Below are positions 13,114 through 52,739 of a DNA stretch of 64,000 bases, piece after piece. The position numbers and the translations under genes are program-made. Position 1 is the first letter of the stretch. Each line of letters opens with the position of its first letter. Source of the stretch: Psammoneis japonica. Lineage: Eukaryota. The stretch is from NCBI GenBank assembly GCA_008632985.1, contig QPGO01000065.1, positions 1 to 64,000 of the forward strand, in the 5' to 3' direction. Under the pieces are notes generated by a model, which searched no databases, was not told the DNA's origin, and saw only the letters and a program-made list of their open reading frames with translations.

Positions 13114-13399
13114 CTTTCTCAAAAACAGGAAGTGGTGAGACAATGCCATCAGAAACAGCATGATGGTGCAATGGCATTAGCAGCAGCAGCAACAAGAGTG
13201 CCAGATTATACCGCCACGCAATGACGAGGAATCAACCAAGACCACGGTATTGTTATTTTTGCACTGGCTACAATATCGTAGAATAAGAAAAAAATAGACC
13301 TAGAGGTTTTGTGAAATGATCATTATGCAGCTCACTTACAGTAGTTACGAATAAAGAGTGAAATGCGAAAGCTATCCACAAGTGCTCTACTCTTTAAAA

Positions 13400-28129: not shown

Positions 28130-29000
28130 GTGAAACAGGAAGCAGCTGACAGAAAAGTTAAAGTGCACAGGGAGACCCTCAAAACAATCCTCAGGATCCT
28201 GCCCAACCTTCAGGTCAGAGCTGTCAAGCGCAGCACCAAGACTGGAGCGTGGCTGTCAGTGTGCCCTTTGTCGCTGAATGGGCACGGCGGAACTCTCATG
28301 CCAAGAGTTCTGCGATGCACTCCATCTGCAGTGTGGCAGTGCTCCACCCAACCTCCTGGAGTGCTGTGATGGATGTGGATGCAAGTTCCCTTTGAGTCAC
28401 ACTCTTCAGTGTAAGAAGGGTGGCCCAGTCATCTCACGACATGATGAAGCATGTGACAACCTGGGTGACCCAATGGGCAGGGCTTGCAAACCTTCCCACA
28501 TGCGAGACGAACCCCCAATTGACCCTGTTGTTCACAGCACAGGAAGCTCAAGCACCCCCAATGGTTCCCCAGGAAACACCACCTCCAACAAGTCCAAGGA
28601 TGGCAATCGTAGAGACCTTCTTGGCATGAGATTTTGGGACAGAAGGACAGACATGGTGATGGACATTCGCACCTCCAACACGGATGCGGAGCCACACCTG
28701 TCCAAAACACCAGAAGAAGTCCCAGCAAGCCATGAATGTGAAAAGAAGTGCAAGCACCTTCAGCCATGTCTGGAACAACGTCTCGCCACTTCACACCATT
28801 TGTTGCATTGTGCAATGGACTTTTTGGCAAAGAAGCCAAGAGGCGATGCTCCGCCAGACAGCATTGAAACTTTCTGACAAGTGGCAAAAGCCACACTCTG
28901 AAGTGTGTGGCTGCATCAACGTGAGGATGAGTGTCGCCACAGTCAGAGCAACCCACTGTTGCCTCAGGGGATCCCGCATTCCCGCCTCTCAGATCAGCTC
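28130..29000 (+). mobile_element. 3' part of a CRE-like non-LTR retrotransposon (zinc knuckle plus restriction-like endonuclease), pseudogenised
   Basis: TGAWLSVCP, ELSCQEFCDALHLQCG, CDGCG..HTLQCKKGG..SRHDE, RRDLL..FW..DIR, EKKCKHL..CLEQR, FTPFV, LSDKWQKPHS, RATHCCLRGSR. These match CRE-clade motifs once Cys/His are read back as Tyr/Arg. Confidence 0.85.
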
Positions 29001-32000
29001 TCCAGGTGACCTCAGTGGGAAGATGGCACAGGTCTGTCCCTTTGTCGCAGAAACTGAACAACCCCAACACAATCAAACCCCACCCATCCAGACCATTTGC
29101 CTGCCAAAAGTCCACAGAGATTGCTGACACCACGCCCAGAAGACAAAAACCCATCATCGTGCTGAACACGATGCAAGATTCAGTTCAATGTTCGTGCGCA
29201 CTGCCTGCGAAATTGCGCGTGTCAACCCCCCCTTGCTCGTGCAACTGCGCTGGCCATGTGACATCCATTTCTAAACTTTGCACATGTGTCAGATTGTACA
29301 ATGCGTGCAGCACAACCTACAAACATGAATGTTTGACATTTCAAATTTTCCACGACTTGTCGAAACGCAATGACAATGGCGACTGCGAACACAGCACACT
29401 CCATCAATGACCACAAATTCACCATGACACTGCCATGTGTCAACAGCTTGTAATTCATTTCAATTGCGTGTGCCTTGCTGTGCTTTGAAATTGATTCATT
29501 GCAGCAAAAACAGCTGAAATGTTCACTTTTCTGCCCATTGCTTTTCGACCGCATAAGTCGACAATGAGCCCGTTGCACTCTCACGTGTCAATTGTGCCAC
29601 ACATGAGTTCACAAGATGCAACACACTGTTGATTGTTGTGGCTCTTGAAGGCAATGCCGTTGAGAAAACGGCAACCACAGAGTTGCCATGGTGAGGTGGT
29701 TTCTGGCTGCAGTGCACCCACATCAAATTCGCACTGAATCTGAGTCGTGCTTGTCGAGTTAGCGTGGCTGCCGCTTTGCACATCATGTGCCCACCATTCT
29801 CAGTGGTGGGGCCGGAGCAAAAAAAAAGGTGACTCAGCAGAAAAAAAAAAACAACTCAGGCTCTGGTCTCCGCCAAGTGAGTCTGCTGCCATTGGCAAGC
29901 ACTTGGTTGGTGAAAAGCTTGAGAAGCTCCTTTGTGCTTTGTGCTGAGCTGGTCAGATCCTGCACCCCAGAGAGCTTCATTGCCCAAACCCTCTTCTCTC
30001 ACTCAGATTGAAGCAGGAGGCAGCACTTGGCACTTTGCCAAAGTTTTGTCATTCTTGTCAGTTCTGAAAGCAGCCTTGTTGAAGGCTTCTTGAGGTCTGG
30101 TCTTCATGAAGAGATGCTCTCCTGACCTCCTTGGGAGACGTCACAGCAGTGGTGTCAGAGCAGGAGGGAGGAGCAACTGGTGGCAAAAAAGCAGCACAAA
30201 GACACCCCTCTTGACCAAGAAGCTCAAGACAGAATCACAACAAGAGAGGTGCTGCAAAAAAGCAACAGAGAATGAGAGTGAAGGGTGCCATGTCTTGAGC
30301 CACCAGCCAATCCTTCAGAGCCCGGCAACTGCCAGAAACAGCAACTCTGGTGAGTTGGTGAGACAGATTCCCCAAGGATTGCATGCTGTGCATGCACGCG
30401 TGTTTGCACTGTGCTGGTGGCTGGCAGGCTCAGGGTCATTTGGGGGGGGGGCATGTGGCAAGCAGCAGCACAGTGCAGAGACAAGAGACAGCAAAAAAAA
30501 ACACAATGATGGAAGATGTGCCTCTGTTGCGGATGCTTTCACCTGCAGCTCCTCCCATTCCCACATGCAACCATCCCCATTGGCAGGTGACAAAGCTCAA
30601 GCAACCAAAGCTGGTCAAAGGTCAAAGAGATGAGGGCAGGGATCTTTGCACTTTTGCTGGCACAAGGCGAGGACTGTCTCTGTTCCTCACATGCAATGAC
30701 AGGTCAGTCCAGGCACTGACAGTTGAAGCTTTTTAGGTCCGTTTGATCATCCATTCTCAGTGCTTTCCAAAATCTGCCCCCCAGCTTTTCTGTCTGGGGG
30801 GCTCCCAAATTCATTGAAAAATTCTCCTTCTAAAAACCCCAAGCCCAACCGGTGGCATCACGGCAGTTTAGTTGCCGGCAGTTGCTTGGTGTGGAGTGTT
30901 CAAAAAGCAAAAAAGCCTGAAAAAGATCAAATGTTTTCTTGCTGCACCAGTGATGTGCGTGCCTTTGCACATGCACAAATTGTGCATTGACACAAACATG
31001 AAAACAAGAAATCCTGCAAGATCTTTTTGAATGTTCCGCAGTGATGGCGGATCCTGTCCAAAGTTCCCGGTCAAAGAGAGTGGGTTTGCACTTGTGTCAA
31101 CATCTGAAAATTGAGATGCTGATTTTTTTAACATCATGGTGACTGTGAATCTTTCACAACAGCATTGGATGCAACAGCCAGGTTGGATCCCAAATTGCTC
31201 AAGGAGGTCATGTTTGTGATTGATGAGAGCATGAGAGTTGGAAGGCCTTTGCACAGCACATGTTTCCTTCTCAGGTGCTGCACTTGAATCACCCACACTT
31301 CCAAATTCAATGCCACTTGAAATGAAGAGCAACATTGTGAATTGAGCCATCAAGGAATTCAACAACTTTGAAAGCAATTGGGGTCTCATGTGCAAATTGC
31401 TTTTTTGGTTTGCAGAGATGGAGAAGTCAGCTGCAATGTTCCAGCCAGGCATGTCAAGAATGGAAAGAACCTTGGAACACAGTTGAAAACACAGCACATT
31501 TTGAGGAATGTCTGGGTGCTTGACATTGGTCTTCAGCAATGGCTTGAAAAAGTCAATGTTGCATGGAATGTTGCTTTTGAATGTTGGGAAGCAATGTCTT
31601 CACTCCTCGTCCAATGCAGCATGTTTTGGGGAGTGCTCAAAAGCTCCACAGTGTTTTTGAGGAACAACTCCAAAACACAGGCATTGCTTGGTGTGTTCAT
31701 TCTGAAAAGTGGGAAGCAATGTTTTGATTCCTCATCCAACATCAGACATGCAGGGTGTGATTGCATGGTTTGCAGCAGCAGGTGTGTTGCAAGGAGGGAA
31801 AGAAGCTCAGAGTGCAGTCAGCTGGGCTGCATTGTTTGAGGAATGCAGGGAAGTGCAAAAAACTTTTTGGGCAAGGTTTGGGCTGGAAAGATTGCCACAC
31901 CAAAATTTCTTGGTGCATGGACTGTGATCTCTGCTTGTTGTCATGTTGGTGCACTTGTTGTTGTGGACAAGTGCCAGATCACTTTAACAGAGTTTGTTTT

Positions 32001-33299
32001 TTTTACCTCAATTGGGCAGTGCTGCTCAAATCCAAATTTTTGGAACCATTTTTTTGTTTGGAAAGTGTCAACAGTTGAGATGTCAAGGTTCAAATCTGCA
32101 GCTCCAACAACAAAACTCACAATTGTGAAAGGGCCAATTTGGCCAGCTTTCATGGTTGTTCGAGCCAGCTTTGTTGCCCCAAACCCAGCAAAGAAGCACA
32201 TGTGGATGAATGTTTGGATGTCGTTGCAAAGGGTCCAAGATCACTGGTTGTTGTTGTGATGCCAACGGCAACACCTGAGATGTCAATCCCACCATGCTGC
32301 TGCATTGCTGGTCACTTGAGTCAGCATCATTGTCCCCCACCACACCCAGAGAAATCAATTGCAAGAGACTGTCAAGGACACAAAGTAGATTGTAAAGAGG
32401 ATCAGTGCCAAGTGGTGCAATCTTTCAAAGCACCACTTTTCATTGTCAATTAAATCCATTTCTGATCAGCTCTGCTTTTGGCAGAGAAAATCTGAGCTTC
32501 CATTTGACAAATTTCTTCTGCCTCAGCCCTGTGTCACTGTGCAAGTTTTGATGAAGTTTCTCAAGAAGAAGGTGGGTTTGCAAAAACTGGAGTTTCTTTC
32601 ACCACTTTCCAGAGAGACTTTTGCAGCAAAATGTCACACCGGGAGAGCTCATCTCACAGGGAGAGCACCTGCATTGTCCACGTGAGCAAGCCGAGCAAGT
32701 GAGCGCAGCCACTGCATGAGCCAGGGTCACTGGCCAGAGCAATGAGCCTGGTGTGTGTTGAAGTCATGTGTGCACTTTGCACCACAACACTGTGGAAAAA
32801 TTTGTGCCATGTGACGTCACATCACTCTCAAAACTTGATGCAGCCAAAGACTGCCACCCCACTTCTGTGCCTGCCAACTCCACCTCCAATCCTCCATCCT
32901 GGACCATTGTTGGCCACAAGCACTGCAATGCCAACAGCACCCTGCCTGACCCTTTCAACACCATCCTTGAAACACCTTTTCCCCCATCCCAACAAGACAT
33001 TGATGGAGACTGCATGTCCGACAATGCACACATGGATGGCCTCAACCTCTTCAGCAAAGATGATGACCCCAACAATGACGCCAATGCCACAAACATGATG
33101 TCACAAAGTGACATTGACAACTGTGACACCCTCAATTCATGGGTCCAAACATCAAAGCTTGGGCTGTTGAGGACAACACTGATCTGCAATCCTTCCACTG
33201 ACATCTCCAAGAGTGGAGCCCCCAAGCACCATGATGCATCTAGAGTGTCCACACTGTGAATGGTCTCTGCTGGAAAACACTGCCACCCAAAACCTCCCC

Positions 33300-36050
33300 A
33301 AGGCAGACCAAGCACAAAACCCTGGACCTCCATTTTCTCCTGCAAGACTTTCTCTCTCAAGCCAAATTACATTCTTGCCACACATGCAACTCCACCCAAC
33401 ATCTGCATGTTTGTGACCCAGCAACCTGTGCAACCATGTCACCCACCACAACCCCCCCTCACTGACACCAACTCCACCCTCATGGCCACACACACCTGCC
33501 TCACGGCACTGCCTGGCCCACCACACCACAACAGCTCAACACTCTTGAGCTTGCTTCCCCGCCATTTTGCACTTCCATGTGCCGCAAGCTGTCTCCCTCC
33601 ATGCGCCACAAAGTCTTTGTTGCCCCACACCACATCCTGACTTGGATCATTGAGTCCACCAAGAAGCCCTCACACACCTCAACCCCAACAACCCAGCTCC
33701 ACCCCATGAGTGCACATCTCTGCACCTTTCTGAAAACTGCTGCTTCTCTTTGAAGCAATTGCCCTTGCTCCACCTTGCTGCTCCCCAACTGCAAACCCCA
33801 ATCGCTGCCCATCAGCTGCCTCTGTTGCACCCACGCACCTTGAACTCTTTCAACAAGGGTGCATCTGCAAACCACATGACACCGCATGTGCCAACCCCCC
33901 CCCCCCCACACACACACACACTGCTCCCAACACCTGCTGTCACACAGCTCAAGTGTCCGTTGATGCCGATGACTTTGGTGCCACTTGCCATCGCGTCACT
34001 TCCAGCCTCCTGATTGCCACCATCAATGACACCCGCCTTCAGCTCATCCACAATCTGCACCCACCCCACATCCCACACCCACTGCAGGCATCTGCCACCA
34101 ACACACGGCACCCCACGCCCCCTCCATCCCCAACACACTTCACCGATGATTGCCTTTTTGCCGCCCTCAGCAAATGCAAGCCTGGCGCTGCTGCTGGCCC
34201 ATGCGCTGACTCCACCAACCTCCTCAAAGGCTGCACCCTCTACAAAACAAGTGCTCCCACTCAGCAGCAACTCTGCCTGCACCTTGTCACCTTCAAGGGG
34301 TTCATGATGATTCTCCAAACCAACTCCGTTCCCTCCAACATCTAACCCCTCACCACTGCTGACTGCTTTGCAGCACTGCGTGAAGACCCCACCAACCTCG
34401 ACAAGCTGCAACCCATCAGTTGCTGCGCTGCAGTTTGTCGCATAACCAGTGCCCGCACTGTGACCATCAATGCACCCGCTCTCACAGAACACCTCCTCCC
34501 AGACAGCCAATTTGGAGTGGGCATTGAGGATGGATCTCTGCGTGCTGCGGTCTGTTTTTTGGGAGCTCGTAATTTTTGTAAAAATGACCCGGATTCTTCA
34601 TGCTAAATGCACGAGCTTGCCAAAAACAATGTTTTGGCAACAGGCTGAACTTTGTCTGCTTCAAAAACACCACAAAATGCACAAACAATGGCTGTGAGCA
34701 TGCGTGACTTTTACCCCATCAACAGCAGATGTGTCCACAGTCAGTCAAATGCCGCCACTTGTCGGATTTTCCCAGAAAGTTGTGGCCAACATCTCACAAG
34801 AAGCCTGATTTTTGCAACAATTGGTGTTTTTTTTTTTTTGAACCTGGCAATGGGAATCTTTCGAAAATGACCCGTGACGCAAAAGCACAACACAATTGTG
34901 GACGCCTGCAGAGTCTGCATGTTTTTGCACTGAAGCTGTCATGCTCACACAATTTGTGCAAAAACAGACTTGACTGTTGTCGCATTGGGTCAGGTGCATT
35001 TTTGCAAATGCATTGAAGAAAAATGCACCTGATCAGAAAACAGTCAAGTCCATTTTTTGCGAAGTTAAAATTCACCAAGGACAGACAGACAGACTTTTCA
35101 ATGATTGTCTTGGCACTGTTCCACACATTTCTACGCAAATGACTCTACAGCACAAAAGATTGCTGTTGCAACAGGACACAGGCCAACAAGTGGCATTTGA
35201 AGCTTTGAATTTGCAGCTCTCATGCTAGTGCAACAGCCCTGAGAAGGGCTTGACGAGTGCACAAGTGCTTGGGGGCATCTCCAAGGCAGGTCAAAATGAC
35301 ATGATGAAGTGTGGGAAATGCGAGCTGTTTTAAATTAGACTGCAGCACATAGATCCATCCTTGAAGATGGCCTTGATTGCCTCACACATGCCACCCATGC
35401 CAATGTTGAATGTTGCCCCAACACCACCACACCGACCCACGCCTTTCTCGCCCTTGACCCACTCAACTTTTTCAACAAAGGCTCTCGTGCAACACCTGTC
35501 AGGAACTCCTTGACAGCACACCCACCTTCAGACACCTCATCCCCATCTTCAACCTCTGCCACAACATGCCAAACACATGCTGGTGCCGCAATCCAGATGG
35601 CAACTGGCAATCCTCCCCACAGCCAGAAGAGGTTTTTCTCAATGATGCCCACTTGTTCCCCCGCTCTCCGCTCTCATTTTGAGCACGGCACTCAAACAGC
35701 TCAACGCTGAACTTTGCCAACACTTCCCATCCTCTGACATTGCGTCAGCTGCTTCCCTCATCAATGACACCAACATGTTTGGCTCCCACAAACCGAGCTG
35801 CCGTGGTTCCCACAACGCCTCAACAAACCAGGCCCCCCCAACATGGAGTCCACCTCAACCGCTCCAAGAAACACATGCTTGCCTCCATCTCTGGCACCAG
35901 CCCTTTATCCAGCCTGCCCCCAACAAGTGCTGATGCCCTTTGCAAAGCCCTGTTTTTCCTTGACCCTGCCAACAATCCTGCCCTCCACCCCAAAATCACC
36001 ACTGCCCCCCGCTTCCTTGGCCAACCCATCAGCAGCCCTGCAGCATGTGA
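33300..36050 (+). mobile_element. CRE-like non-LTR retrotransposon reverse-transcriptase region, pseudogenised and interrupted by the 34528..35360 insertion
   Basis: KPGAAAGPCAD, LTALREDPTNLDKLQPIS, EHLLPDSQFGVGI|EDGLD, AFLALDPLNFFN (RT D..NAFN motif). Boundaries approximate. Confidence 0.7.
34528..35360. mobile_element. Non-autonomous TIR DNA transposon (833 bp), TTGA target duplication, possibly Kolobok-like
   Basis: Ends ggatggatct..ctgcgtgctgcggtctg and tagactgcagcacatagatccatcc are inverted repeats. ttga flanks both sides (34524..34527, 35361..35364). Removing it restores QFGVGIEDGLD in the host LINE. Confidence 0.75.
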
Positions 36051-36845
36051 CTGTCACGTGCATGTTCATGATCATGTGTTATTTGTGTGTCAATCGCACC
36101 ACAGTCGTGGATGCGCACAAAGGACAGAACGATCACACAGAGTTGATCGGATGTCGAGAATTGCAAACACGATCGATTGACGATGTTGACATCTTGCGTG
36201 TCAATGGCAATCACATCCAGACAATCTGTTGTCACGAATGCATTCTCCGAAAGGCCTTTTGTCTGCAGAAGCAGTGCAGAAGCTTCAGGCCATTGAGAAC
36301 TCGTTCGGAGAAACCAAAAATCACAGAGTGAAATTCAATCTCATAAATTTCCACTTTTCGCACACTGTTCTACTTTCGGGATTGTTGGATCACACCCTTG
36401 ACGAGCTGATTGAGGTTTGAGTCATCTGGAGGTCGGTGAGGACGTCCATGACAAAAAAACATGTCAAATCAGGCTCTGACAGTGCTGTTGATTCCAAAAT
36501 CAAAAAGGTTCCAAATTTGGTTCCCAAAATGGTCTCCTGTGTGGCACCTGAACAATCCAAAGTGAGTGCAAGGTCCAATCTTTGAAAAAAGAACACCTGC
36601 ATCACGGATTGAAGCCATTCTGAAAATGAGCCAGCAAAAGAGTGCAAGGGTGACTCTGAAAGAGACCCAAAAATGCGCAGTTCAAATGGCAATTGCACGC
36701 GGTCGCGTCGCGATGACGAAAATGCCGCTCGCAAAAAAAGAGATGAACGTCATGATTGATCAGGCGGTTCAAAAAACACTCAAAGCAAGTTCCTCGAACA
36801 AAGAAAAAGAGCACAAGGGCAAAGAATCAGATTCTGATGCCCTCA

Positions 36846-38176
36846 GGCACGTTCCCACCCTGATAATTTCGGCCGTAAAATAAATGTAATTTGGCCAAAT
36901 TTACGTGTTTACGGGCGTCAGGCTGGGAACGGATTCGATCGGTAAAAAAGATCAAAATCTCATGTCGAGCTCGGTGAGGACGCTACACGCTACAGTACCA
37001 CGCTACAGCACTGTTTACACTACTACTCTCTACTGCTAGCAGTAGCTAGCTCTAGAGAGCTGCTAGCTGTTAGGACTAGAGAGTCACCATAACATTGTCA
37101 GGGACAATCGTTGTCCATTTTGCGATTGCTCTACGGTGACCCAAGACTAATGATAACACCAGTGAAGGAAAGAAGAAACACACCAACATTCAATCCTCTG
37201 TTGACAGCAAGAGTTGCAGAGCGAGCATGAAAAAGCACGAAACATTGGCATGCAGTAAGACCACAGCATGCAAAACTATTAAATGAAATTTCTACAGAAT
37301 GTTAGGTGCTAAAAGGCACTGTTCTTAACTCTTGCGGTTTACCAATGGCCTAAATCCATTTCAAAGAGCAACAGAAGGGCTGCAGACAATGGAGCCAACG
37401 ACGTTGTGCAAAACATTGACCCCCACCAGCATCATTGTCCAAACTTACGACAAGATTAATGAAATGAGTGCACACAGCCTTCTTCATAGTCATGTTCCAT
37501 CAAAACGGAGCACAAGCCTTGCTGTTGTCGTCGACGTGACCAAAATTCTTGCATTCTTGACTCTTGACAGTCCATCAAGTAACAACCTCGAGCATGCACC
37601 AAAGAACCCCCTCAATGTAACATCAGATCATATGTTGCTATGAAGATTCGGCCTCAAGTCTGTAGACGTATGGTTTGTGAAGAATCCCAACGCGAAATCT
37701 GAACAAGAGAAACAAAGACATCAAAAATACTGTTAGTCGACACGGTCGTCATAAGCCACAACAACAACGAAAAATCATAATTCTGACAACTTGATCGCAT
37801 CAAGCGTAGTATTATTAACCTGTCTCTATATTCTTACCTTCGTAGACAGGACGGTCGTTCGTGTATGAACGGGTCCGTTCATCGCAGCAGCCATCATGGT
37901 TGTTGTGCGATCGGAGCGGAGAAAGAAAAATGGGGAGCTTGTGACGTGGCACGTTCGAGCTCCCAAAACGCCGAATTTACCGTGAAAATTATATTTACGG
38001 GAGAGAATTTACGACGACCGACACCTGTCGTCGTAATTTGCTGATAATTACGGCTGTAAATTGAAGGATGGAAAACAGACGTGCGATTTTTCTTGTACGA
38101 GAGTTTCTACAGGAATTTTGTGTAGAACGAAATTATATTTATTTTACGGCCGAAATTATCGGGGTGGGAACGTGCC
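36846..38176. mobile_element. Non-autonomous TIR element (MITE, 1331 bp), PIF/Harbinger-like
   Basis: About 47-bp TIRs, ggcacgttcccaccctgataatttcggccgtaaaataaatgtaattt and aaattatatttattttacggccgaaattatcggggtgggaacgtgcc (2 mismatches). 3-bp TSD tca at 36843..36845 and 38177..38179. Removal rejoins the Gypsy frame (DSDAL-SEEK). Confidence 0.88.
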
Positions 38177-42520: not shown

Positions 42521-42820
42521 TGACAGAAAGTGAGGAAAATGGGGGCACTCGCCTGGAGGTGTCTTGGGTGATCAAATCCGTCCACAAACAGGAGAGCACA
42601 GGCTAAAACTGGGAATGTCTTGCACTGAAGTGTGTTCTAGACATTGTGAGAGATTCTGAGTTACTCTCAGAATCGGAGCCATGATGAAAGAAGGGTGGAT
42701 TCCGACAGGTTGTGGAAACTCCAAGGAATCACGGATGATTTCCATCACAAACTATCGTGAAGATGCAATGTCTTCAATCATGAGGTTCCGATGTCAAAAG
42801 GGAATGTGGAATCCCTGACA
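42521..42820 (-). repeat. 3' LTR of the nested Copia
   Basis: Colinear with 50212..50511 without indels; adjacent to the PPT. Confidence 0.95.
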
Positions 42821-45800
42821 CCCCCCTTGAACCGAATGAGGGAAGACATGGAAACGACTCATGAAAGCATGTGAGAAGGAAGGTGCCAAAGAGCACGATC
42901 GACCATGGGCCAAATTTTCTCGGCACTCTGAGTTTTGGTGGTGCAGTCGGCAAGTTGACTTTCTGCAGGAACCCAGGAAAGGAGGTGATGACCGAGTCGT
43001 TGGCCTTCGCGGACACATTGGAAACGTCGTTCGATGTGCCTGGTGCGGCGAGTCTGCTGGTCATTTTGGGCCATTTGGACAGCGGCTTGATTGTCCAGCA
43101 CAATTGTGGTGGGGGTTGTGGACAGATGCTGAGTGTCAATGGAGCAGTGGCGGGTGCCAAGGTGGGTGAAGTCGCAGGCCAGCATGCATGGGTGGGCCAC
43201 AGCCATCGCGCCAGTGCAGGCACCCATCCATTCGGATTCAGCGGTGGACATCACAATGGGGGTGGGGACAGTTGAATTGGCTTCCACTGTTGCCCCATTG
43301 AAGAAAGCCAGAAATCCCACAGTGGACTTCGCGGTGTCAGGACAATCCTGCCAGCTGGCATCGGAGAACACGACAAACACAGAATGATTGACGTTGTGTG
43401 CCTCACAGATGGCGTGGACGGGGCTCGCGGTGGGATCAGAATAAAATTTGATGGCGAGGTCTTGATGTTTCCGGAGATGACCAAAGAGGTGGACGAGAGC
43501 GTCGAAGTCTTTCATGCCAGGGTTGGCACAGGCCTTGGCGAGTTTGCAGGTGATCCATAAAATGTCGGCTTGGGTGTTGCATGCAAGATGCAGGATGGAG
43601 CAGACGGCGGATCGAAAATGGAGATCTGGATGTTTTGCGGAGATTGCCTTGGATTCAGCTTCATCCTTGGGGCGATTCGACTTGGAGTGGACACAGTCGA
43701 CGGGAGCTGGTGTGTCTTGAAAGCTGGGGCTGCCCCAGGGCGAGTCCGGTGTGAGGAAACGCTTGAGGAGATTGCAAACGTGCCGATGTTGGTCGAGAGA
43801 AAAAGAGCCGTCCTCGCATCGGTGGGTGCGCATCTGGAGGAACCATGTGACGTCGCCGGTGAAGGTGATGTTGTACTTGGAGGTGATGAGGTTCTCGAAA
43901 TCCTTTTCAACGCGATTGTGTGAGCCAAAATGGATCACATCGTTGGTGTAGAAATCAACTTGAGGCAGGAACCATCAGAAAAGTGCTTGGCGAAGAAGGT
44001 GGGATCGGCCTTGGAGTTGGTGTGTCCCTGGGCAATCAAAAATTCAGAGAGCTCAGTGGACCACCAGAGGCCACTGCGGATGGTGCCATGCATGCCTTTC
44101 TTGAGATGGAGCGAGATGCCAAAATATTCGGCACATTCCGGGAAATGTTGCTTGAGGATGGGATCGAATCAGACGAAGAGGCGGCCGCGAGCAGGAGCTT
44201 GGAGGTGGGCTCCGACGAAATCGCCATTTTTAACGCGTCGTTTGGCTTGAGCAGCAAAAGCAAGGAAGAGTTTGATGGCGCGGGAGGAGGCGTTCGGCGA
44301 CCAATTGTCGTCATCGTCGTTGCAGCGTTGCATGTCGCCGCATGCGCAGCAGCGAGCCTTGAGTTTCTTGAGAGAACCGTCGGGCTTCTGCTTGGCACGG
44401 AGAGCGAGGGTTGCACCAACAATTTTGTCATCGGGACAAGGACATTCGTGAAGAGCGCAGGTCTCGTTGTCGACAATGAGGTTTTTAAGCTCAGAGCCAA
44501 CAGCACGGAGCCAGGCGTCGCGGATGGCCGGAGGTTGTCTGAGGACAGCTTGGAAAGAACGAGGAACGGGCAAGCAATCGTCAATGGGGGTTGTTGCTGA
44601 GGCTTGAAGGATCTCAAGAGCCTGTTGCAAGGGGTCGGGACACTGGTGCCAGTTGTGATTGATCCAGGGAGAGGCAACGGCGGCGCTGAACGCTTGCTCC
44701 ATGCCGAGAGAGTCGTCGAAGAGAGTTTGCTCGAGGGTGTCGAGCGGGGAGACGGTGGTGGACACACACAAGTGTTTGTCGTCAGCAAAACGGACGGAAG
44801 TGAGTTTTCCGGCATTGGATCGGGAGGAGCGACGCAAGGTTGGAGCGGTGTTCGTGAGAGGAGCGGAGGTGTCCAATTGAGAATCATCGACAGAGGAGGA
44901 GTCCGAATCAGATGCAGATGGAGGGTCAACATCGAGGAAATCCTTGATGGTCCCAGCATGCTCATCTGCAGGTGTGTCGTCGTGATGAGTGAGGCCAGAA
45001 GAATCGTTGGGCATGTTGCGAATCGGGAGAGCGCCAGAGAACGGAACATGGTCATGCACCAGGGACGATTCGAAGAGTTCGTCGAAAATGGCGTCATGCG
45101 CAACAATCAGATTTTTGGGACCGATTCCTTTGGGAACATGAGTGAGGTAGCCAGCCTGGTTGGGAGCAAAACCAACGTGAATGCCACGAGAGCGTCGTTG
45201 GAGTTGTTGTTTTGCAGTGGTCGGGTGGCCGGTTTCCGGATTGAGAGGTTGGCACCTGTCGAAAGCAACGGGACAACCAAAGACACGGAAGTGGCCAATT
45301 TTCGGATGCTTGTTGAAAGCATGAAAATGAGGGGTAGTGAGTGAGCCATCCGGTGGTCAGGTGCCCTTGGCTGGAAGCACATTGAGCATCGCAACTGCGT
45401 GGAGGAAGGCGTGATGACAAAAGTGGGCCGAGAGGTGCGCGTTCACGAGGAGGCAGCAAATGATGTTGGACACAACTTGCCACATGCGTTCACTGATGCC
45501 ATTCATTTCTTGGTGACGAGGAGCGGCGATCTCAACCTTGATGCCATTGTCGGTGCCAAAAGAAATGAATTCGTGAGACAGAAAACATTGCGCAGAGTCG
45601 GCGCGGATGAAATTGGCGTCTTGCACGTGGCCAGTGGCCTGGACTTCTGCCATCCAGGATTTGAAGGCTGCAATGATGTTGCTGGTGGTGGGGCTCGTAA
45701 GACCACGCATGCCACAAAGGTGTCCTTTGTGCGCAGCCATGAAAAGATGGCACGGAAAAGAGGAATTTGGGGTGAGAGCAACATTGTGTGGGTTGGGAAT

Positions 45801-48800
45801 TGTGTCCACAAACACACGTGAAAAAGTGTGGTCCGGTTCAGTTGGGTCACACTTGATGCGGTTTCGTTTGCGAGATGTGGCAATGCGCGCATTGTCCAAG
45901 TGCGCGTCACTCCCGGGGGCAACATGACAGTCGTGCCAAACTTCGCCAATTGTGCCAGCCAAAAGACTTTGAGAGGCCGACATCCGAATCGGCGACCAGC
46001 AAGGTCAAGGTCGATGGCGGAGGTCGTGGGGTGGGAGGAGGACGGTGCAGAGTCTGCTGCATTGTCAGGAGGGTCGCTCGCGTTGGAGGAGCGAGGTGCA
46101 GTGGACGCATCGTGACAAGAGCGTTGGTGACGAAGGATCGGGAAGCTGAAAGTGTGGCCATCGCCAAAATCGAGCTTTGTGATGTTCGTCGTGATGTGCA
46201 CATTGAACAATTCGTTGTTGGCGAAGGCAGGGACCGAGAACAAATTCCGGTTGAGACCGGGGATGTGGTGCACATGGTCAAGGACGAGGTTGACGGGGTG
46301 TCCTTGATCATCCTGAAAATGCAAGGTGACAGAGCCAACCTTCGTAGCGTGGACTGTGGTGCCATCAGCAATCACAACGGGGACATGACAATCAACGGGA
46401 TCGTCGAGTGAGTCATGACGGACGAAGTGAGAGGATGCCCCAGAATCAACAAACCAACTGCGAATGTCGGTGAGGTCATGGTCACGAGGAAGTTGCTGAG
46501 GACGACACTGGGTGCGATCGTCGGCCATGAAGGCGACATGATCAGGAGTGTCTGCAACTTGGGCGGAAATGTGAAGCGCAGCAGTCTCAGGAAGGTCAAC
46601 GCTGAGTTCAGAAATGACAGAGGAGTCATCATCATCTGAAACGGTCGACGGCAGTTCCGTGAGAGGGGCCAGAGTGTGCGCGTCGGAAAAATCCAGGGGC
46701 AAAGTTGTGGCCGGTGTTGCCAGACGAGACGGCAATCCACTCGAGTGAGAGGGAGAGCGTTGCGTTGGCGGTGGGAGTGGGCCTGCAAGAAAGGGCATGA
46801 CAGATGATGAGTCAGTGCTGGAATCACATGAGTGATGGGCCAGAGGTGGTGGACCGGCCGAGGACGAGTCAGAGGACGTGTCGGAGTCGGGTGACACATC
46901 GGAGAAAGAGTCGCCGTCGCATGAGCCGGAGCGACTTCGCCGTGGACAGAGGGGTGGCATTGATTCATGAGAACAGACCGAGGAGCAACAATCATCCACG
47001 GGGTGGAGACTGGTGGCGGGGCAAGTGGTCGGCGTAGCATGGAAGAAAGAATCGAAGGACGAGTTGTCGTCAGTCGAGTCAAAGGCCGAGTTGAGATCAC
47101 CGGGATGGAGACAGAGAGATGGCACAGAGGCGTGAGAGGACAGAGAAGCGCAACAATCAATCTTGGGGGTGATGCCGGTGGCACAAAAAAGATTTGCGTG
47201 TCATCGGGTTTGGCAGCATTGAGACAGGTCAGCGGTGCAGGATTGGCGCGAGTGGCGGCAAGAGCGGTTTGCTTGGAAGCCGACTTGAGTTCTGGGCACT
47301 GCGGACAAAGATGTCCCTTCTTTTTGCAATGGCAGCAAGTGACCTCACTCAAGTCACGAGCAGCCTTGGGAGGAGAGTCCGCTTTGGAGTCGGGTGGCTT
47401 GGATCCATTTTTTAAGTCGCGAAGGCGTGAACGGCACTCGGCGGCGTTGTGGTTGAGCTCACCACAGCATCCACAAATCTCGTTCGTGCACTGGTGGCGT
47501 TGGCGTGGAGGCTGTCGCTGTCCATTGCGATGACTCTGCCGGGTGGTGGCAAGATGTGCATGATTGGACGGCGGTCGCAGGCGATTGCCACCGGAGGCGC
47601 GGTCGCGGTGCTGTGCGTTGTGATGTTGTTCGTCGATGCTGTAGAAAGTCTGGCGGATTTCTTTAAAAAGAAGAGCATCGGCAGATGAGAGACGAGAGGC
47701 AGTGCAAAATTCGGATTCGAATTGTTTGATGGCAGCATCACAGCGGGGGTGACTGCCCATTTGACTGAGAAAATGGGTGCTCTTCTCGGCGTCAGTTTTG
47801 ACAGGCAAGCCCGCATTTTTGTAGTTCCGAAATTTGCGTTCAAAACGTTCAATGAAACTGCTGGCTGACTCATCAGAATTGTGAAAAATCTGAAGGCAGT
47901 CGTTGGCACAGCAGTTCATGTGTTCCTGGGAGAGAGGGGCGCAACGTTGTTGCAGTTCCTCGAGCGCGAGTTTGCCGGAGTTTGAGCCGAGATCGGAGAT
48001 GTCCGACTTGTGCGCATCGTCCACATGCGTCCAGAGCAAGGCAAAAAGGGCCTTGTCAGTGGCAGCAGGAAGGGGACGAAGAGGTGCGGAAGGAAAATCC
48101 GTGACACAGTCAGTGAGCTCGGGAAAAGAGGCAAGAGAGCCGCGCAGCTCGTTCAGGAAAGAGTTGAATTTTTGACTGCGCGTGCATGGATTCTGATTGT
48201 GTTTCAGAATGCCAAGTTTCGTGTGGGACGCATGCTTCATGAGTGAATTAGCCAGTGATTCTGAGGAGCGCTCCGTTGCATCCGTGGTGCAATTGAGTGG
48301 CTCAGAAATGAAAGTGGCATCATGGTCCGAAGAAATGTCGTGGCGAGACGCGCGATCGGGCGGCGGACTGAGGGCAAATTGGAATGACAAGTCCAAATAG
48401 AGAGCCTCAGCTTGTCGCATCACATGCTGGAAACAGTCGAGGGCAAGTGTTGTGGATTCACAAGCCGGGTGGCGACGAAGAAGGGATTCGAACGACGATT
48501 TTGCAGAGTCAATCGTGAAACGAAGATCGGCCTCATTTTCGGATGCGCGAGAGAAGAACGGTTGTAGTTCCTGTTGAACACGAGCGAGGGCCTCAGTGGT
48601 GACGAGACGAATCAAAGAACTGTCCACAGTGGTGTCGACCGGGTCAGAGGTCGTGGGCTCCGGAGGAGAAGAGGCAGTCGCGACATCGGGCGCAAAGAGG
48701 TCCTCGTGGTCCGTGGGAGTTGGTGTGGCGAGAGCATCATCAAGAGTGCCATCCACATCCTGTAGAATGGGCGTGATGAGTGTCTCGAGGCGAGTGACAG

Positions 48801-50211
48801 GTGTGTCGTTGGTGTGATCGACATTGGAGAGTGCGGGAGTGGCAGATTCCGGGTTGGTCGACAGTGGCGGGAAAGATTCAGGAGCATCAAGAGGAGCCGG
48901 CGCTGGTGCAGTTGATGCCTGCGAATGAGACGGAGAAGGTGATGGCGGGGGAATGTTGTGGGTCCCCCCTTCAAGTGAGGCAGTCTCATCGATGGGAGAG
49001 ACGGTTTCAACGGCAACGAAAATGGTTTCGGGTGCCAAGGGTTCCTGAGAGCGGCGTCCGGATGAACGGCATGTTGTGGTTTGCTTTGTGAAGCAGCGAT
49101 CAAGGTCAGGATGCTCAAAAGGTTCACGTCGGGACATGCCAGTGCGACGGCGGTAGCGGCGCAAAGTGTGATGTTCCTGATTCGGCGTCAGTTTCTGGGG
49201 TTTCTTCTTGCGAGAAGAGGAGCGAAAATTGCCGGTGCGTGGGTTGGAAAAGTGAGATGATTTTGCAGGCGCGGCATGCGCAGAAGGTTTCTGGGTGCGG
49301 TTGTGCAAAGTGTCCAAATCGACATCCAAAATGTCCATCAAGTCATTGATGTCCATGAGAAGGTCATCATTTTCGTCATTGGTGAGGACGCAAAATTCAG
49401 TCGGATTACGAACGAACGATGGTGTCGATGCGGTGTTCATGCTGAGCATGAGAGTGCTTGAGGACACGAAAATTGGAGTTGATCTTGTCAGTCTCCGAAT
49501 TGAGACGGTCGACGCGGGATTGAATTTTCGCAAGATGATCCTGGAGGGCACAACGGACGTCTGCTTTGACTTGGTGGCGGCGGAGTTCCTCGGGCGATGG
49601 CGGTGCAGGAGCAGGAGTGCACTTGGAGGAGGCAATGGCGCATTGAACAGCACGTTTGGCATGACGACCAGCAGAGCGATTGTGCTTGCGGAGAGGTTTG
49701 GAGGGTCCAGAAGATGTCGTGGGCAAAGAAAGGGTTTTGCCGTTGCGGAGGCCACGAACGGGAGAGCAAACACGATGCTCAAAATCCGTGTTGGTCTCGG
49801 AGGCAGCAAGTGTGCGGCAGATGGCACAGTTAGAGCGACGAGTGGAGACTTTGTTGCGCCTGGGGACTTGCTGGGAAGAGTGGGCAGGCGGCTTAGAGCG
49901 AGGCAGAGGAGTGCGCTTGACGCGACGGGTCGGAGTGTGGCGTGCGCCCTGGGTCACGCAACTGGAACGACGACGACATGTGGAGTGCAAGCCAGCATGC
50001 TGGACCACAGAGCCAGCATCAACATGATGACAAAGGTCACGAGGGTGGGCCGTGGGGAGTTCATCAACAGAAAGTCCGCGGGCCGCGAGGGAATCGTGCA
50101 AGTTGGGAGCGTGCGATGACGCCTTGCGACGAGAAGAGGCATGAGACGCATGACGAGCGTTCGACGCAAAAGAAGTGGTCTCCTTGGACCAAACCGGAAG
50201 AATTGCAACCA

Positions 50212-50511
50212 TGACAGAAAGTGAGGAAAATGGGGGCACTCGCCTGGAGGTGTCTCGGGTGATCAAATCCGTCCACAAACAGGAGAGCGCAGGCTAAAAC
50301 CAGGAACATCTTGCACCAAAGTGTGTTCCAGATGTTGTGAGAGACTCTGAGTTACTCTCAGAATCGGAGCTATGATGAAAGAAGGACAGATTCCGACAGG
50401 TTGTGGAAACTCCAAGGAGTCACGGATGATTTCCATCACAAACTGTCGTGAAGATACAATGTCTTCGATCATGAGGTTCCGATGTCAAAAGGGAACATGG
50501 AATCCCTGACA
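50212..50511 (-). repeat. 5' LTR of the nested Copia
   Basis: Colinear with 42521..42820; followed on the minus strand by tggttgcaattc (PBS-like). Confidence 0.95.
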
Positions 50512-52739
50512 GTGACAGACAATTGTTTCTTCAAGACGATTGGCTTGCTCCTGCAGAACTGGAGCAGAAATGGCAACATGAAGAACATGTGCATCTTTTC
50601 AGGAACACACGTCAACAACAGCCTGCTGCAACAAAATCTTTGAAGCCTGTTGCTCTGGTCATCAACCCACCACCATCTGCGTGTCCCAATGCATCCATGC
50701 CATCGAATTCCGCAAAACCCCAATCCGTCAATGAGCAAATTGGAAGTTGGTCATTCAATGCCTCCCGCATGTCCGCCACCTCCTTCAGGTGCAGAGTCAT
50801 TGGACATCTCAGTCCCGGCTCAAGATGTCCCAGCACCACCCACAACTGAGCAGAACATGCATTGCTCACAAAGATCAAACAAAGGCAGGGGAGCTGCAAC
50901 TCCTTTTGCCAACAAAGCCCATTTAGCCTCAGCTGAGCCATCGGATGCTGGAGGATGCCATTCCCAGCTTGCTCATCTTGCTGAGATCCAAGCCTGCTGT
51001 GACAGTGGAGAGCTGGACATTCAAGACCCTTGTGTCTGCACTGCCAAGGCCAAGAAGAATGATGACATGCCAAATGTGCAAGAAGCTCTCATGGGCGAGT
51101 TTGCCAAGCAATGTGTTGAGGCCATGAAGACCAAAGTGGCCGTGCTCGTTCATCGCAAAACATGGAAATTTGCAAAGCGCGATTCTTCTGTGAATGTGTT
51201 GAAATCAACATGGGCTTTCAAGTGCACTCCACTGAAATTCAAGGCTTGATTTTGTTGTTGTGGCAACTTGCAGCAAGAAGGAGTCAATCACTTCAAGACC
51301 TGTGCTCCAGCAGTCCAGTGGTTGACTGTTCATCCATTGTTGAGCGCTGCATTGCAAGAAGGGTGGGCAACTCATCAAGTTGACTACACCAATGCATTTG
51401 CACAAGCTGATGTCACCAAAGACATTTGCATCAAACCTCCCAAGTGTTTTGGCCCTGCCTCAGGTGCCAACATTGTTTTTGAGCCACTCAAGATGCTCTG
51501 TGGGTTGAAACAAGCCCCAAAATGCCTCTGCAAAAAGCTCCGCAAAGGATTGATTGAACAAGGGTGGGTTCAGCTGGTGGCAGACCCTTGTCCATTTTTC
51601 AAGGATGGCATGATTTGTGTTGCACACGTTGGCAATGCTGTCCTCACTAAAATGGAGGCCTTCTGGAACGTGAAGTCACAGCTCCAGGAATCCAAAAGGA
51701 AGAACAATGCCACATTTTCAAGTTCCCACTGACTCAACCGGGTCTAACTGATGAGGTCCTCAAAGCTGCTGGTGTGGAAGATTGTCATCCTTCTCTCACA
51801 CCATGCACTGCTTCTCCATGCCATGCTGACTCAGAGGATCAATTGTTGGGATGCTCACGTGTTTATCGGCAAACTCTTGTCCCAACATCACATGCACTGC
51901 CCATCAAGCCGCTTGCTTCTCCTGCACTCCCAACAGTCCCATGCTGTTGCAGTGAAGTGTGCTCTTCATTGTCTTCAAGGTGCAAAGGACAAGGGCCTCT
52001 GCCTGCGCCCTGGTGACAACCAACAAGTTGGTTGTTTTGTGGGTGCCGATTTTGCTGGACTCTGTGGTCATGAAAACTCCCAAGACCCAGTGAGTGTCAA
52101 GTCTTGTGCAGGACACGTCATTTTGCACTGTGGCTGTTCCATTTTGTGGGTCTCCAAGCTGCAGATGCAGATTGCTCTCTCCACTGTGGAAGCAGAACAT
52201 CTGGCACTGTTGGCTGGCATGTGCAGCCTGACTCCGATCCAAGAGATTTTGAAAGAAATTCAGCATCACGCATTCGGGGGCACAAGAATGCTTCTGCTCC
52301 TGCTGCTGCCAAGTCAAAAGCCTTTTCTGATGTGAAAGACGGCACGATTCCTTCCTCCAATGTCTGCAAGGACAACCAGGCATTTTGCGCACCAAACACA
52401 TTGGCGTTCCCTGTCACTGGTTCTGCACTAAAGTTGAGCTGCTCGAGATCATCATTGAGCCTGTGGGAACTGACTCTCAGCTTGCAGATCAGTTTGCAAA
52501 GGGGTCAGTCCAAGCTCTGTTTGAATCTGGTTGGAAGGGTCTGTCTGGCTGGTGGCTCTGCAGTTGAGAGGGAGAGTCAAAATGTCAAAGTCATTTTGTC
52601 AATGCCGCTTCAGACATTTCCATGTGTCACTTGCGTCATCAAGATTCAAATCTCATCTCTCCTCACAAATCTGGTCGTTGAGACCTCTCCACAGTTTGTC
52701 ATCATAATTTCTCCATGGAGAACATTGACAACGACTTGT

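Follow-up and report, generated by a model that had tools for sequence, protein, structure and literature searches.

Conserved tyrosines replaced by cysteine or histidine suggest that a host erases TpA from old retrotransposons in diatom DNA

Why should conserved tyrosines appear as cysteine or histidine in several retroelements from the same stretch of DNA? The window analysed here, 64,000 nucleotides of Psammoneis japonica, raises this question, and the original prediction answered it with a loss of TA imposed by the host. In agreement with such a loss, the TpA observed/expected (o/e) ratio is 0.06 in depleted blocks totalling 32,205 bp, against 0.60 in the remaining 30,007 bp of host-like DNA, and the TpG/CpA ratio is 1.61 against 1.16. 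The TA-poor blocks, namely, 7701-11701, 25901-36801, 38401-40101, 41201-53801, 60701-62601 and 62901-64000, have TA o/e values of 0.02-0.12, compared with 0.39-0.76 elsewhere in the window, and contain TA-free gaps of up to 1018 bp. Their edges are sharp, the TA level switching over distances of tens to a few hundred bp. The signal had been placed at 28130-52565, where it is indeed present, but it is wider than this, as the blocks span 7701 to 64000.

The block at 7701..11701 (TA o/e 0.07, 18 TA; CpG o/e 0.65) gave no Pfam match among its ORFs of at least 50 aa, and that at 25901..36801 (TA o/e 0.07, 46 TA; CpG o/e 0.32) holds a LINE fragment, its sole recognised component, together with a stretch at 32001-36371 whose plus strand is C-rich (TG/CA 403/563). 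The two blocks furthest to the right have TA o/e ratios of 0.02 (60701-62601, where CpG o/e is 0.09) and 0.12 (62901-64000). The TA sites that survive depend on context: relative to normal DNA, retention is 0.43 for TTAA and 0.33 for CTAA/TTAG, and falls to 0.018 for GTAC, 0.011 for ATAT and 0.005 for ATAC/GTAT. The 3' neighbour effect on loss is TAY >> TAG > TAA.

To evaluate the protein-level consequences, we pooled alignment columns from two Copia elements and one LINE fragment, with consensus residues taken from homologues, and used the consensus-Phe columns of the same elements for comparison. Only 3/40 consensus-Tyr columns kept Tyr and 26/40 carry Cys or His, whereas 38/60 consensus-Phe columns are kept and 8/60 carry Cys or His (Fisher test, p=1.2e-7 for Cys/His and p=8e-9 for kept residues). 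The replacement of tyrosines that had been proposed is thereby confirmed. All 15 peptide motifs on which that proposal was built were found at their places, and most, although not all, of them lie on true tyrosine columns.

The LINE fragment (28127..29010, plus strand) is a 5'-truncated non-LTR retrotransposon of which only the C-terminal domain remains; its protein search returned 1203 matches at E<=1e-3, and RVT_1 lies upstream of the domain in 4/12 homologues scanned, an architecture of RT plus C-terminal domain; the CRE clade named for it in the original prediction is a putative assignment. All five of its consensus-Tyr columns are lost, three to His and two to Cys, while its Phe (4/4), Trp (3/3), His (3/3) and Cys (6/6) columns are intact. 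The motifs LQCG, KKCKHL and KPHS, read as former tyrosine sites, have Tyr in 100/134, 87/100 and 46/60 homologues, respectively.

The two Copia elements are nested. The outer one, on the plus strand and TA-depleted in both parts, consists of a 5'-truncated left part (41049..42520; integrase and SH3-like region, with 3 TA in 41201-42520) and a right part (50512..53800; RVT_2, E=8.7e-14, RNase H and 3' end); a 528-bp contig from run X1 bridges 40993-41519 with 0 differences. Its 15 Tyr columns, both parts considered, hold one Tyr, six Cys, five His, one Phe, one Leu and one Gly, and the six Cys/His sites quoted for it all fall on columns with Tyr in 5-7 of 7 homologues. Its 29 Arg columns include six kept, seven Cys and three His, so that CpG decay of Arg codons supplies part of the Cys/His excess in this element.

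The inner Copia (42521..50511, minus strand) has LTRs at 42521-42820 and 50212-50511 and is flanked by the target duplication GTGAC (42516-42520 and 50512-50516); Pol occupies 46513-42868 and a long ORF 49953-46375. This element has 32 TA in 7991 bp, and its 20 Tyr columns show two Tyr, nine His, one Cys, six Phe, one Trp and one Leu. The long ORF, 1193 aa from stop to stop (46375-49953, minus strand), has 4 Tyr, 35 Cys and 53 His, and contains the 1151-aa ORF (46372..49827) in which only four tyrosines had been counted. As for its motifs, KGMHGT (Tyr in 10/10 homologues), VHHIPGL (3/3) and SILHLA (5/5) are former tyrosine sites; RFQCVRE is half supported, with Tyr in 3/6; and GAHLQA falls on a column that is Phe in 10/11 homologues and Tyr in one. 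No homologue extends over the zinc knuckle TCCHCKKKGH, a putative further site.

That the loss tracks the dinucleotide rather than the codon follows from non-Tyr codons, which obey the same TA rule. First, where A became G at codon position 1, a T precedes in 16/31 changed against 5/97 unchanged A-starting codons (p=3e-8). Second, where T became C at codon position 2, an A follows in 13/17 changed against 47/176 (p=7e-5). This behaviour speaks against codon preference and an alternative genetic code, both dismissed in the original prediction, as do the adjoining host genes, which are unaffected and use Tyr normally, as anticipated (10/334, 11/390 and 13/504 residues in host ORFs).

It could be argued that no targeted process is involved at all, the pattern being native composition, such as codon usage or restriction avoidance, or ordinary decay of methylated CpG. 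Indeed, most depleted blocks are poor in CpG too (median o/e 0.58, versus 0.98 elsewhere; TA and CpG o/e correlate at Spearman 0.62 over 62 windows), and codon position 3 of the inner Copia is natively strongly biased towards C (C 0.45). We nevertheless consider this account highly improbable. CpG decay alters Arg codons, whereas here Tyr columns are lost; the inner Copia retains CpG (o/e ~1.0) and has lost TA (o/e 0.02-0.10), such that the two losses are separable; homologues have normal Tyr contents (2.3-5.3% for Copia, median 2.1% for the LINE domain); and it is precisely at former TA sites that sister copies diverge.

The sister copies also date the changes. The LTRs of the inner Copia are identical at 278/300 sites, and all 22 differences are transitions, with 0 transversions, making the pair 100% identical in purine/pyrimidine code. 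These differences comprise six TG/CA doublets (12 nt), four TA-versus-TG/CA sites, three CG-versus-TG/CA sites and three other transitions. Therefore, mutation took place in DNA, after the LTRs had been made, on both strands and in each LTR on its own. Hyperediting of retroelement RNA from A to I by an ADAR-like enzyme with a 5'-U preference, fixed by reverse transcription, might be entertained given the strand bias of the inner Copia (nine His to one Cys; TG/CA 760/577); however, ADARs are known as a metazoan family. Editing of one strand yields only TG or only CA, at odds with the outer Copia (six Cys, five His) and the LINE (two and three), and an LTR pair with TG in one member and CA in the other cannot predate LTR formation. 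Because of these doublets, and of those in the tandem copies described below, RNA editing is refuted as the source of most changes and deserves next to no credence, even though a 5' T (U) preference resembles that of ADAR, as noted in the Discussion section of a preprint (bioRxiv 10.64898/2026.01.13.699255).

The direction of change is shown directly by a Gypsy-type element on the plus strand, whose TA-depleted part (38280..40111; protease-like region 38589-38666, RT 39128-39397, duplicated RT 39908-40165) is followed by a TA-normal 3' part (40112..41048; RT_RNaseH, PF17917, E=2.1e-7), with Tyr kept and 67 TA in 937 bp. A tandem duplication lies within the element (38762-39571 / 39575-40339). 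Its copies are distinguished at 14 TG/CA doublets and 12 TA-versus-TG/CA sites, and two Tyr positions read as Cys in copy 1 and as His in copy 2. From 40112 on, copy 2 retains TA where copy 1 has TG or CA. The switch falls within copy 2, where the alignment is unbroken, leaving the element half converted without a structural explanation; recombination with an unmutated copy may be its source. For GKNECCRLP, proposed to derive from a two-tyrosine motif, alignment with GKYQYLRLP of the homologue P0012 places Cys at one Tyr and Asn at the other; the evidence from this element is thin, coming from a single homologue.

The duplication invites comparison with a process like repeat-induced point mutation (RIP), whereby long duplicated DNA would be sensed through pairing, perhaps restricted to the sexual cycle, and mutated at TpA. 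The converted tract roughly overlies the 810-bp duplication (38762-40339), the depleted elements come from repeated families, and a weak strand bias of the kind known from RIP tracts is present within repeat pairs, the first copy carrying TG at 5/6 and 10/14 doublets. Yet the tract begins ~480 bp before the duplication and ends ~230 bp short of its end. Moreover, the host-like DNA at 11793..21436, with its carotenoid-oxygenase (RPE65) genes, has a second copy at 53903-59014 (identity 97.6%, 94.6% and 88.2% by segment), and the duplicates of 1.6 kb (97.6%) and 2.3 kb (94.6%) are TA-normal, with 0 TG/CA doublets and with 20 and 43 transversions, respectively. A TIR DNA transposon, which other contigs identify as a separate repeat, is likewise unmutated. 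Hence, homology as the trigger appears very unlikely.

This transposon (36847..38174) has ~40-bp terminal inverted repeats and a 6-bp target duplication, CCTCAG (36841-36846 and 38175-38180). Its TA content is normal (74 TA in 36864-38280; CpG o/e 0.97), and contigs from run X1 lack it, passing straight from 36840 to 38175. Every identified depleted target is a retroelement, and this sole identified DNA transposon stands untouched inside a depleted block, which agrees equally well with a general process and with one that is episodic or specific to retroelements.

A restriction-factor-like enzyme could instead edit double-stranded retroelement cDNA before integration, such that insertions arrive stripped of TpA and the chromosome is never targeted. 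The identity of the depleted elements, the sparing of the TIR transposon and of duplicated host genes, and a switch at 41048/41049 that coincides with the junction of two elements would all be expected, and in a linear cDNA each of the two LTRs could take its own hits. We regard this scenario as unlikely, since the 40112 switch occurs within a single uninterrupted element, the tandem copies were mutated independently, and ~20 kb of the depleted sequence shows no sign of a retroelement, Pfam search of ORFs included. LINEs insert by target-primed reverse transcription, without a free double-stranded intermediate; the LINE fragment was nevertheless converted on both strands, which favours a chromosomal process. 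The precedent in Bigelowiella natans targets integrated DNA viruses (bioRxiv 10.64898/2026.01.13.699255).

Taken together, a host process acting on the chromosome and inactivating retrotransposons is probably what explains the pattern. It would turn the A of TpA into G on either strand, yielding TG or CA, and would be confined to transposon-derived DNA, running until TpA is nearly exhausted. Tyr codons (TAY) would thereby become Cys (TGY) or His (CAY), with matching changes in all codons holding or straddling TA; TAA and TAG stops would be removed as well, and the elements left dead, while host genes only a few tens of bases from the blocks are untouched. The chemistry is most likely enzymatic deamination of adenine by a putative deaminase preferring 5'-T-A-Y-3', the resulting hypoxanthine being copied as G when the DNA next replicates. 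Normal Tyr in homologues, the dinucleotide rule, the direction seen in the Gypsy copies and unaffected host genes support the original interpretation of a host-imposed, inactivating loss of TA. Where run X1 is listed as differing from the window within the inner Copia, every site is a CpG and none a TA, so no ongoing TA mutation is visible there.

A genome defence of this type has been described only once, very recently (2026) and in an unrelated alga; for diatoms, we found no report of such TpA hypermutation in the literature. In B. natans, integrated giant-virus and virophage DNA undergoes TpA-specific hypermutation: 230/231 mutations in two integrated viral regions of mutation-accumulation lines were A>G or T>C, all 230 at TpA, and reverse transcriptase and DDE endonuclease domains are over-represented among its TpA-poor CDS (Mettrop et al., bioRxiv 10.64898/2026.01.13.699255). 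The signatures match: A>G/T>C at TpA only, giving TpG or CpA by strand, with TpA depletion and CpA+TpG gain in foreign or selfish DNA and host genes spared. The process here seems to be a defence of this same type, and the two may share descent. In contrast to that chlorarachniophyte (Rhizaria), our host gene has diatoms as its closest named relatives, and the targets are LTR and non-LTR retrotransposons, with evidence from an LTR pair. Depletion is near saturation (o/e 0.06) here, but partial there (Rho 0.45; TpA 3.3% against 6.0%; same preprint), implying that rates or ages differ greatly. The 3' neighbour effect also sets our case apart from that text, which uses neither 'trinucleotide' nor 'context'. 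Unlike in the accumulation lines, the process is read here from end states, not live, with no de novo event among the data.

Better-known systems resemble this process in part. RIP, of ascomycete and some basidiomycete fungi, is also a transition-only hypermutation of transposons in chromosomal DNA, keyed to a dinucleotide, acting on both strands, inactivating and sharply limited. However, RIP converts C>T mainly at CpA, creating TpA and stop codons, whereas here A>G at TpA destroys TpA and TAA/TAG stops, and duplicated host DNA is spared. APOBEC3-type editing of vertebrate retroviruses and LTR retrotransposons shares the deaminase style and the dead edited copies left in the genome, but it acts as C>U on minus-strand cDNA before integration, giving G>A on one strand, unlike the A>G on both strands seen here, differing between two LTRs of one insertion. 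Finally, deamination of 5-methylcytosine is a further source of TpG/CpA within transposons, likewise starting from a palindromic dinucleotide, and the older blocks show it; LTR elements of diatoms carry CpG methylation (PMC2806351). Its starting dinucleotide is another one, its codons are those for Arg and not Tyr, and it is slower than TA loss, as the younger inner Copia lost TA but not CpG.

TpA occurs at 0.39-0.76 of its expected frequency (observed/expected, o/e) in the host-like DNA of the window, versus 0.02-0.12 in six blocks delimited by 1-kb and 400-bp scans, namely, 7701-11701, 25901-36801, 38401-40101, 41201-53801, 60701-62601 and 62901-64000. When strand-symmetrised dinucleotide counts were pooled over the blocks (32,205 bp) and over the rest of the window (30,007 bp), the o/e values were 0.06 and 0.60 for TA, 0.55 and 1.01 for CG, and 1.61 and 1.16 for TG/CA, respectively. 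The edges of the blocks are abrupt, as illustrated by a final TA at 36371 with dense TA again from 36864, and by TA that is dense up to 41048 with the next one only at 41424. The longest TA-free gaps reach up to 1018 bp. An assembly gap, a run of 510 Ns, is present at 5685-6194.

The contents of the blocks that could be identified are Copia, Gypsy and LINE retroelements. First, two nested elements were assigned to Ty1/Copia, given their Pfam domains (RVT_2, SH3_retrovirus and Pol_BBD), an integrase that precedes the reverse transcriptase (RT), and tblastn matches to eleven public protein homologues (P0001-P0011). The inner Copia (42521-50511, minus strand) has 300-bp LTRs with TG..CA ends and a 5-bp target duplication, GTGAC; the outer Copia (~41049-42520 and 50512 to ~53800, plus strand) is 5'-truncated, and its LTRs were not found. 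Second, a Gypsy-type element (~38280-41048) contains an internal tandem duplication of 810 bp, with protease-like (38589-38666), RT (39128-39397), duplicated RT (39908-40165) and RT_RNaseH (40625-40714) segments. Third, a LINE fragment occupies 28127-29010. A search with its ORF (28278-28874) gave 1203 relatives at E≤1e-3, and the match covers the last 170-290 residues of proteins 840-1160 aa long. The window lacks the RT, and RVT_1 lies upstream of the matching domain in the long relatives (four of the 12 scanned); thus, this is a 5'-truncated non-LTR retrotransposon. Its label as a CRE element in the original prediction is putative; that clade is defined by RT phylogeny, with a C-terminal restriction-like endonuclease following the RT.

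Around 20 kb of the blocks has no element assigned by Pfam and homologue tblastn. Pfam matched seven of 90 stop-to-stop ORFs of at least 120 aa, of which one lies in a TA-normal island and another is an unrelated match to DUF2205, and no additional match came from 127 ORFs of at least 60 aa in 25.9-42.4 kb (E≤0.01; 18 overlap the previous scan) or from the shorter ORFs of the remaining blocks (n=99, 50-119 aa). Likewise, when every Copia and Gypsy homologue was used as a tblastn query (E≤1), no element could be assigned to 7.7-11.7, 25.9-28.1, 29.0-36.4 and 60.7-64 kb, and recoding the window as purine/pyrimidine, which exposes repeats hidden by transitions, gave no pairs beyond those from plain BLAST. 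Two further observations concern the Copia nest. A contig from X1, a sequencing run seen as contigs, links 42516 to 50519, joining the outer Copia halves without the inner Copia and with six other letters between them, so that an empty-site copy or allele exists. Upstream of the inner Copia pol, an open frame of 1193 aa (46375-49953, minus strand) is rich in Pro, Ser, Ala, Thr and Leu and has no Pfam match.

The original prediction held that TA loss turned conserved tyrosines of four retroelements into Cys or His, and the 15 peptide motifs on which it was based were all located where they had been reported. To evaluate the fate of these residues, homologue residues were placed on window codons, requiring at least 60% agreement among at least three homologues for the Copia columns, and at least 50% among at least 20 for the LINE; homologue cover excludes the zinc knuckle of the inner Copia. 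The 20 Tyr columns of the inner Copia now hold 9 His, 6 Phe, 2 Tyr and one each of Cys, Trp and Leu; the 15 of the outer Copia hold 6 Cys, 5 His and one each of Tyr, Phe, Leu and Gly; and the five of the LINE fragment hold 3 His and 2 Cys. Altogether, Tyr is kept at only 3/40 columns and replaced by Cys or His at 26/40, as compared with 38/60 and 8/60, respectively, for Phe columns (Fisher p=1.2e-7 for Cys/His), which confirms the observation. In the LINE, the remaining aromatic columns and those of His and Cys are all conserved (Phe 4/4, Trp 3/3, His 3/3, Cys 6/6), and the Tyr content of the elements' homologues is ordinary.

Some individual motifs fared differently. GAHLQA falls on a column that is Phe in 10 of 11 homologues. 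For RFQCVRE, half of the homologues (3/6) have the anticipated Tyr and the other half do not, and in the Gypsy motif, which was compared with a single homologue, one of the two Tyr is Cys and the second is not. Moreover, only six of the 29 Arg columns of the outer Copia are kept, with seven Cys and three His; CpG decay of Arg codons therefore accounts for part of the Cys/His excess in this element. Of 150 public proteins related to the C-terminal domain of the LINE, nine have less than 0.7% Tyr (including P0086, P0137, P0025, P0075 and P0117), and P0086 has no Tyr in 266 aa, with His, Cys and Cys at its three covered Tyr columns. These Tyr-poor relatives are probably hypermutated copies elsewhere.

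The substitutions follow dinucleotides rather than codons. At conserved columns, T is the base before 16 of the 31 codons whose first position went from A to G (Ile/Met>Val, Thr>Ala, Asn>Asp, Lys>Glu and Ser/Arg>Gly), versus 5 of 97 unchanged A-starting codons (p=3e-8). Similarly, T-to-C at position 2 is followed by A in 13/17 cases, versus 47/176 conserved NCN codons (p=7e-5). Since the effect tracks dinucleotides across codon borders, codon preference and an alternative genetic code were dropped, and their earlier exclusion is borne out by these codon-context tests.

Sister copies within the window reveal the direction of the change. The inner Copia LTRs agree at 278 of their 300 sites, and the 22 differences are all transitions, without a single transversion, so that the pair is 100% identical in purine/pyrimidine code. 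These differences comprise six doublets, in which one LTR has TG and the other CA at the same aligned site, four TA-versus-TG/CA sites, three CpG transitions and three other transitions. A doublet implies that one ancestral dinucleotide became TG in one LTR and CA in the other, and this ancestor was TA, because the LTRs retain many CpG and four sites are still TA. The Gypsy tandem copies have 14 doublets and 12 TA-versus-TG/CA sites, with copy 2 retaining TA from 40112 on at every site where copy 1 is TG or CA; two RT Tyr positions in this duplication are Cys in copy 1 and His in copy 2. Thus, TA is ancestral, the change postdates the sister copies, and both strands were hit. These sister-copy data contradict native composition as the source of TA scarcity.

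The differences within the LTR pair and between the tandem copies thus favour an action at the level of DNA that would have followed copy formation. RNA editing fixed by retrotransposition is contradicted by the same data: ADAR-type editing is sense-only and gives the same changes in both LTRs, whereas here each element has both Cys and His, and TG/CA doublets separate the LTRs. APOBEC-type editing also differs, being a one-strand C>U (G>A) change that occurs before integration and is common to both LTRs, unlike the A>G changes on both strands and the LTRs that differ at former TA. A related alternative, editing of double-stranded cDNA before integration, we regard as improbable. LINEs copy themselves into the chromosome by target-primed reverse transcription, and the LINE fragment carries both outcomes, His and Cys.

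Sequences that were spared delimit the process further. Three host duplicate pairs, 12996-14642 with 54951-56609 (97.6% identical, 20 transversions), 19083-21436 with 56608-59014 (94.6%, 43 transversions) and 11793-12527 with 53903-54655 (88.2%, 49 transversions), have normal TA and no doublets. A non-coding TIR transposon of 1.33 kb (36847-38174; 36841-38180 with its 6-bp duplication, CCTCAG), with inverted ends of ~40 bp, is also normal in TA and CpG, though it lies within a depleted block; X1 contigs run from 36840 straight to 38175 without it, so it was inserted later. The 3' part of the Gypsy-type element (40112-41048) is TA-normal as well. Therefore, duplication is not simply what triggers the depletion, and the region is not permanently subject to it; the process is selective, episodic, or both. 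A homology trigger like that of fungal RIP is given a low probability: RIP is duplication-triggered, whereas host duplicates of 1.6-2.3 kb (95-98% identity) and the TIR repeat are unmutated, and RIP changes C>T at CpA (or TCG) and raises TpA, whereas TpA is removed here.

Two further features of the window were recorded in passing. The duplication at 11793-21436 and 53903-59014, in three pieces of 88-98% identity, carries carotenoid-oxygenase (RPE65) genes, and both of its copies start ~100 bp from a TA-depleted block, the two blocks being unrelated. Summed contig depth over 36-41.3 kb is 25-500x that of the inner Copia, a ratio that is not a copy number.

Survival of TA depends strongly on sequence context. 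Retention relative to normal DNA, from small counts, is 0.43 for TTAA, 0.33 for CTAA/TTAG, 0.13 for GTAA/TTAC, 0.07 for CTAG, 0.018 for GTAC, 0.011 for ATAT and 0.005 for ATAC/GTAT, giving an order of conversion, on these small counts, of TAY >> TAG > TAA. Strand use is balanced in most blocks. The inner Copia is skewed (TG/CA 760/577; His:Cys 9:1), and 32001-36371, where no content was identified, is skewed in the opposite direction (403/563). The first copy has TG at 5/6 and 10/14 doublets of the repeat pairs (15/20 pooled), a bias that weakly hints at strand-coordinated tracts. In a test of strand coordination, over-dispersion of TG versus CA in windows of 200-500 bp did not differ between blocks and host DNA, and at 1 kb the variance is 2.7 versus 1.4, owing to the two skewed blocks. 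A wider A>G mutation was also considered for the GC skew of the inner Copia and rejected, as the skew resides at third codon positions (C 0.45) and in the Pro/Ser/Ala/Thr-rich N-terminal ORF; the plus strand is G-rich because of this strong bias for C-ending codons. Changes of the types Leu>Pro (0/46 columns), Ser>Pro (0/32), Trp>Arg (0/8) and Cys>Arg (0/8) are absent.

TA and CpG loss are correlated across windows (Spearman 0.62), and are nevertheless separable, since CpG o/e is ~1.0 in the inner Copia, which by its nesting is younger than the outer Copia. All the differences listed between the window and X1 contigs over 42993-49828 of this element (at least 13) are CpG<->TpG/CpA, with none listed at TA or elsewhere; they may reflect alleles or different strains. 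These data suggest that the inner Copia is highly CpG-hypermutable, through methylation, while its CpG content is still ~1.0, and that TA conversion is fast and followed by a slower decay of methyl-CpG.

A comparable process has been described in Bigelowiella natans. In mutation-accumulation lines of this alga, two integrated viral regions mutate ~1000-fold faster than the remaining genome, and 230 of 231 changes, seen in some lines only, are A>G or T>C, all 230 on TpA (10.64898/2026.01.13.699255). Its genome has 124 clusters of windows poor in TpA and rich in CpA+TpG, reverse transcriptase and DDE domains are enriched in TpA-poor CDS, and an ADAT2-like adenine deaminase is proposed by the authors as a candidate only (10.64898/2026.01.13.699255). 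As in B. natans, changes in the window hit TpA and yield TpG or CpA, and are almost purely A>G/T>C transitions in the LTR pair, versus the 20-49 transversions of each host duplicate. Also as in B. natans, the depletion is limited to selfish DNA and host genes are spared, with the proviso that part of the blocks has no assigned element. Unlike the de novo mutations of cultured lines, the process in the window is known from its end states. The words retrotransposon, LTR, trinucleotide and context are absent from the available text of the preprint (10.64898/2026.01.13.699255). A full-text search, covering papers other than subscription-only ones, did not find the signature reported for diatoms, nor did keyword look-up in the accessible text of two diatom transposon papers (10.1101/2025.10.24.684338; PMC2806351).

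The pattern is best explained by TpA>TpG/CpA hypermutation like that of B. natans, imposed by the host on selfish DNA and acting at the level of DNA. The observation in the original prediction is thus confirmed, and its interpretation is supported. What is new with respect to B. natans is the different lineage, the retrotransposon targets and the saturation, whereas we only infer the deaminase chemistry and how targets are chosen. As a tentative, and on balance doubtful, extension, a guided DNA adenine-deaminase defence may be common to diatoms and chlorarachniophytes, perhaps to much of SAR, as a mirror of fungal RIP. Such a defence would recognise chromosomal transposon or viral DNA through RNA or chromatin, not by duplication, and would convert 5'-TAY-3' tract by tract, in bursts with some strand coordination, until no TpA is left, with slower CpG-methylation decay thereafter; the half-converted Gypsy, with its switch at 40112, would then capture one such tract midway, and the Tyr-free LINE relatives among public proteins would be further victims.

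To our knowledge, no natural, targeted A-to-G mutator of chromosomal DNA was known before the 2026 B. natans preprint, which concerns one rhizarian species. The same signature, at saturation, in retrotransposons of an apparent diatom would mean that the defence is not peculiar to one species or to viral inserts, and LTR pairs and nested insertions offer a cheap gauge of timing, tract length and strand bias. Transformable model species exist among diatoms, through which the enzyme, predicted to be a natural DNA adenine deaminase, could be sought. For annotation, hypermutated elements escape Pfam, and their lack of TAA and TAG fills the genome with spurious long ORFs.

In the blocks, the loss of TAA and TAG leaves TGA as the sole stop, with long open frames in all six frames; for instance, 42.8-47.5 kb holds 15 overlapping ORFs of at least 150 aa, a trap for gene callers. 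Regarding the TA-normal DNA, a 504-aa ORF (21702-23213, plus strand) has internal direct repeats at ~21917-22296 and no Pfam family, and its Protein Atlas neighbours are weak and uninformative (0.76-0.77, maximum 0.77), being transposase-like or RAG1-like clusters. The neighbours of a SOUL ORF are plant and diatom SOUL clusters (0.88-0.89), which we take as a lead only; it weakly agrees with the apparent diatom affinity of the host, for which a single gene family, the carotenoid oxygenases, is the main source. Finally, the best named relatives of the carotenoid-oxygenase ORF (14281-15450) are from Asterionellopsis glacialis and Odontella aurita (61% identity) and Coscinodiscus wailesii (48%), with cyanobacteria and green algae at 30-42%.
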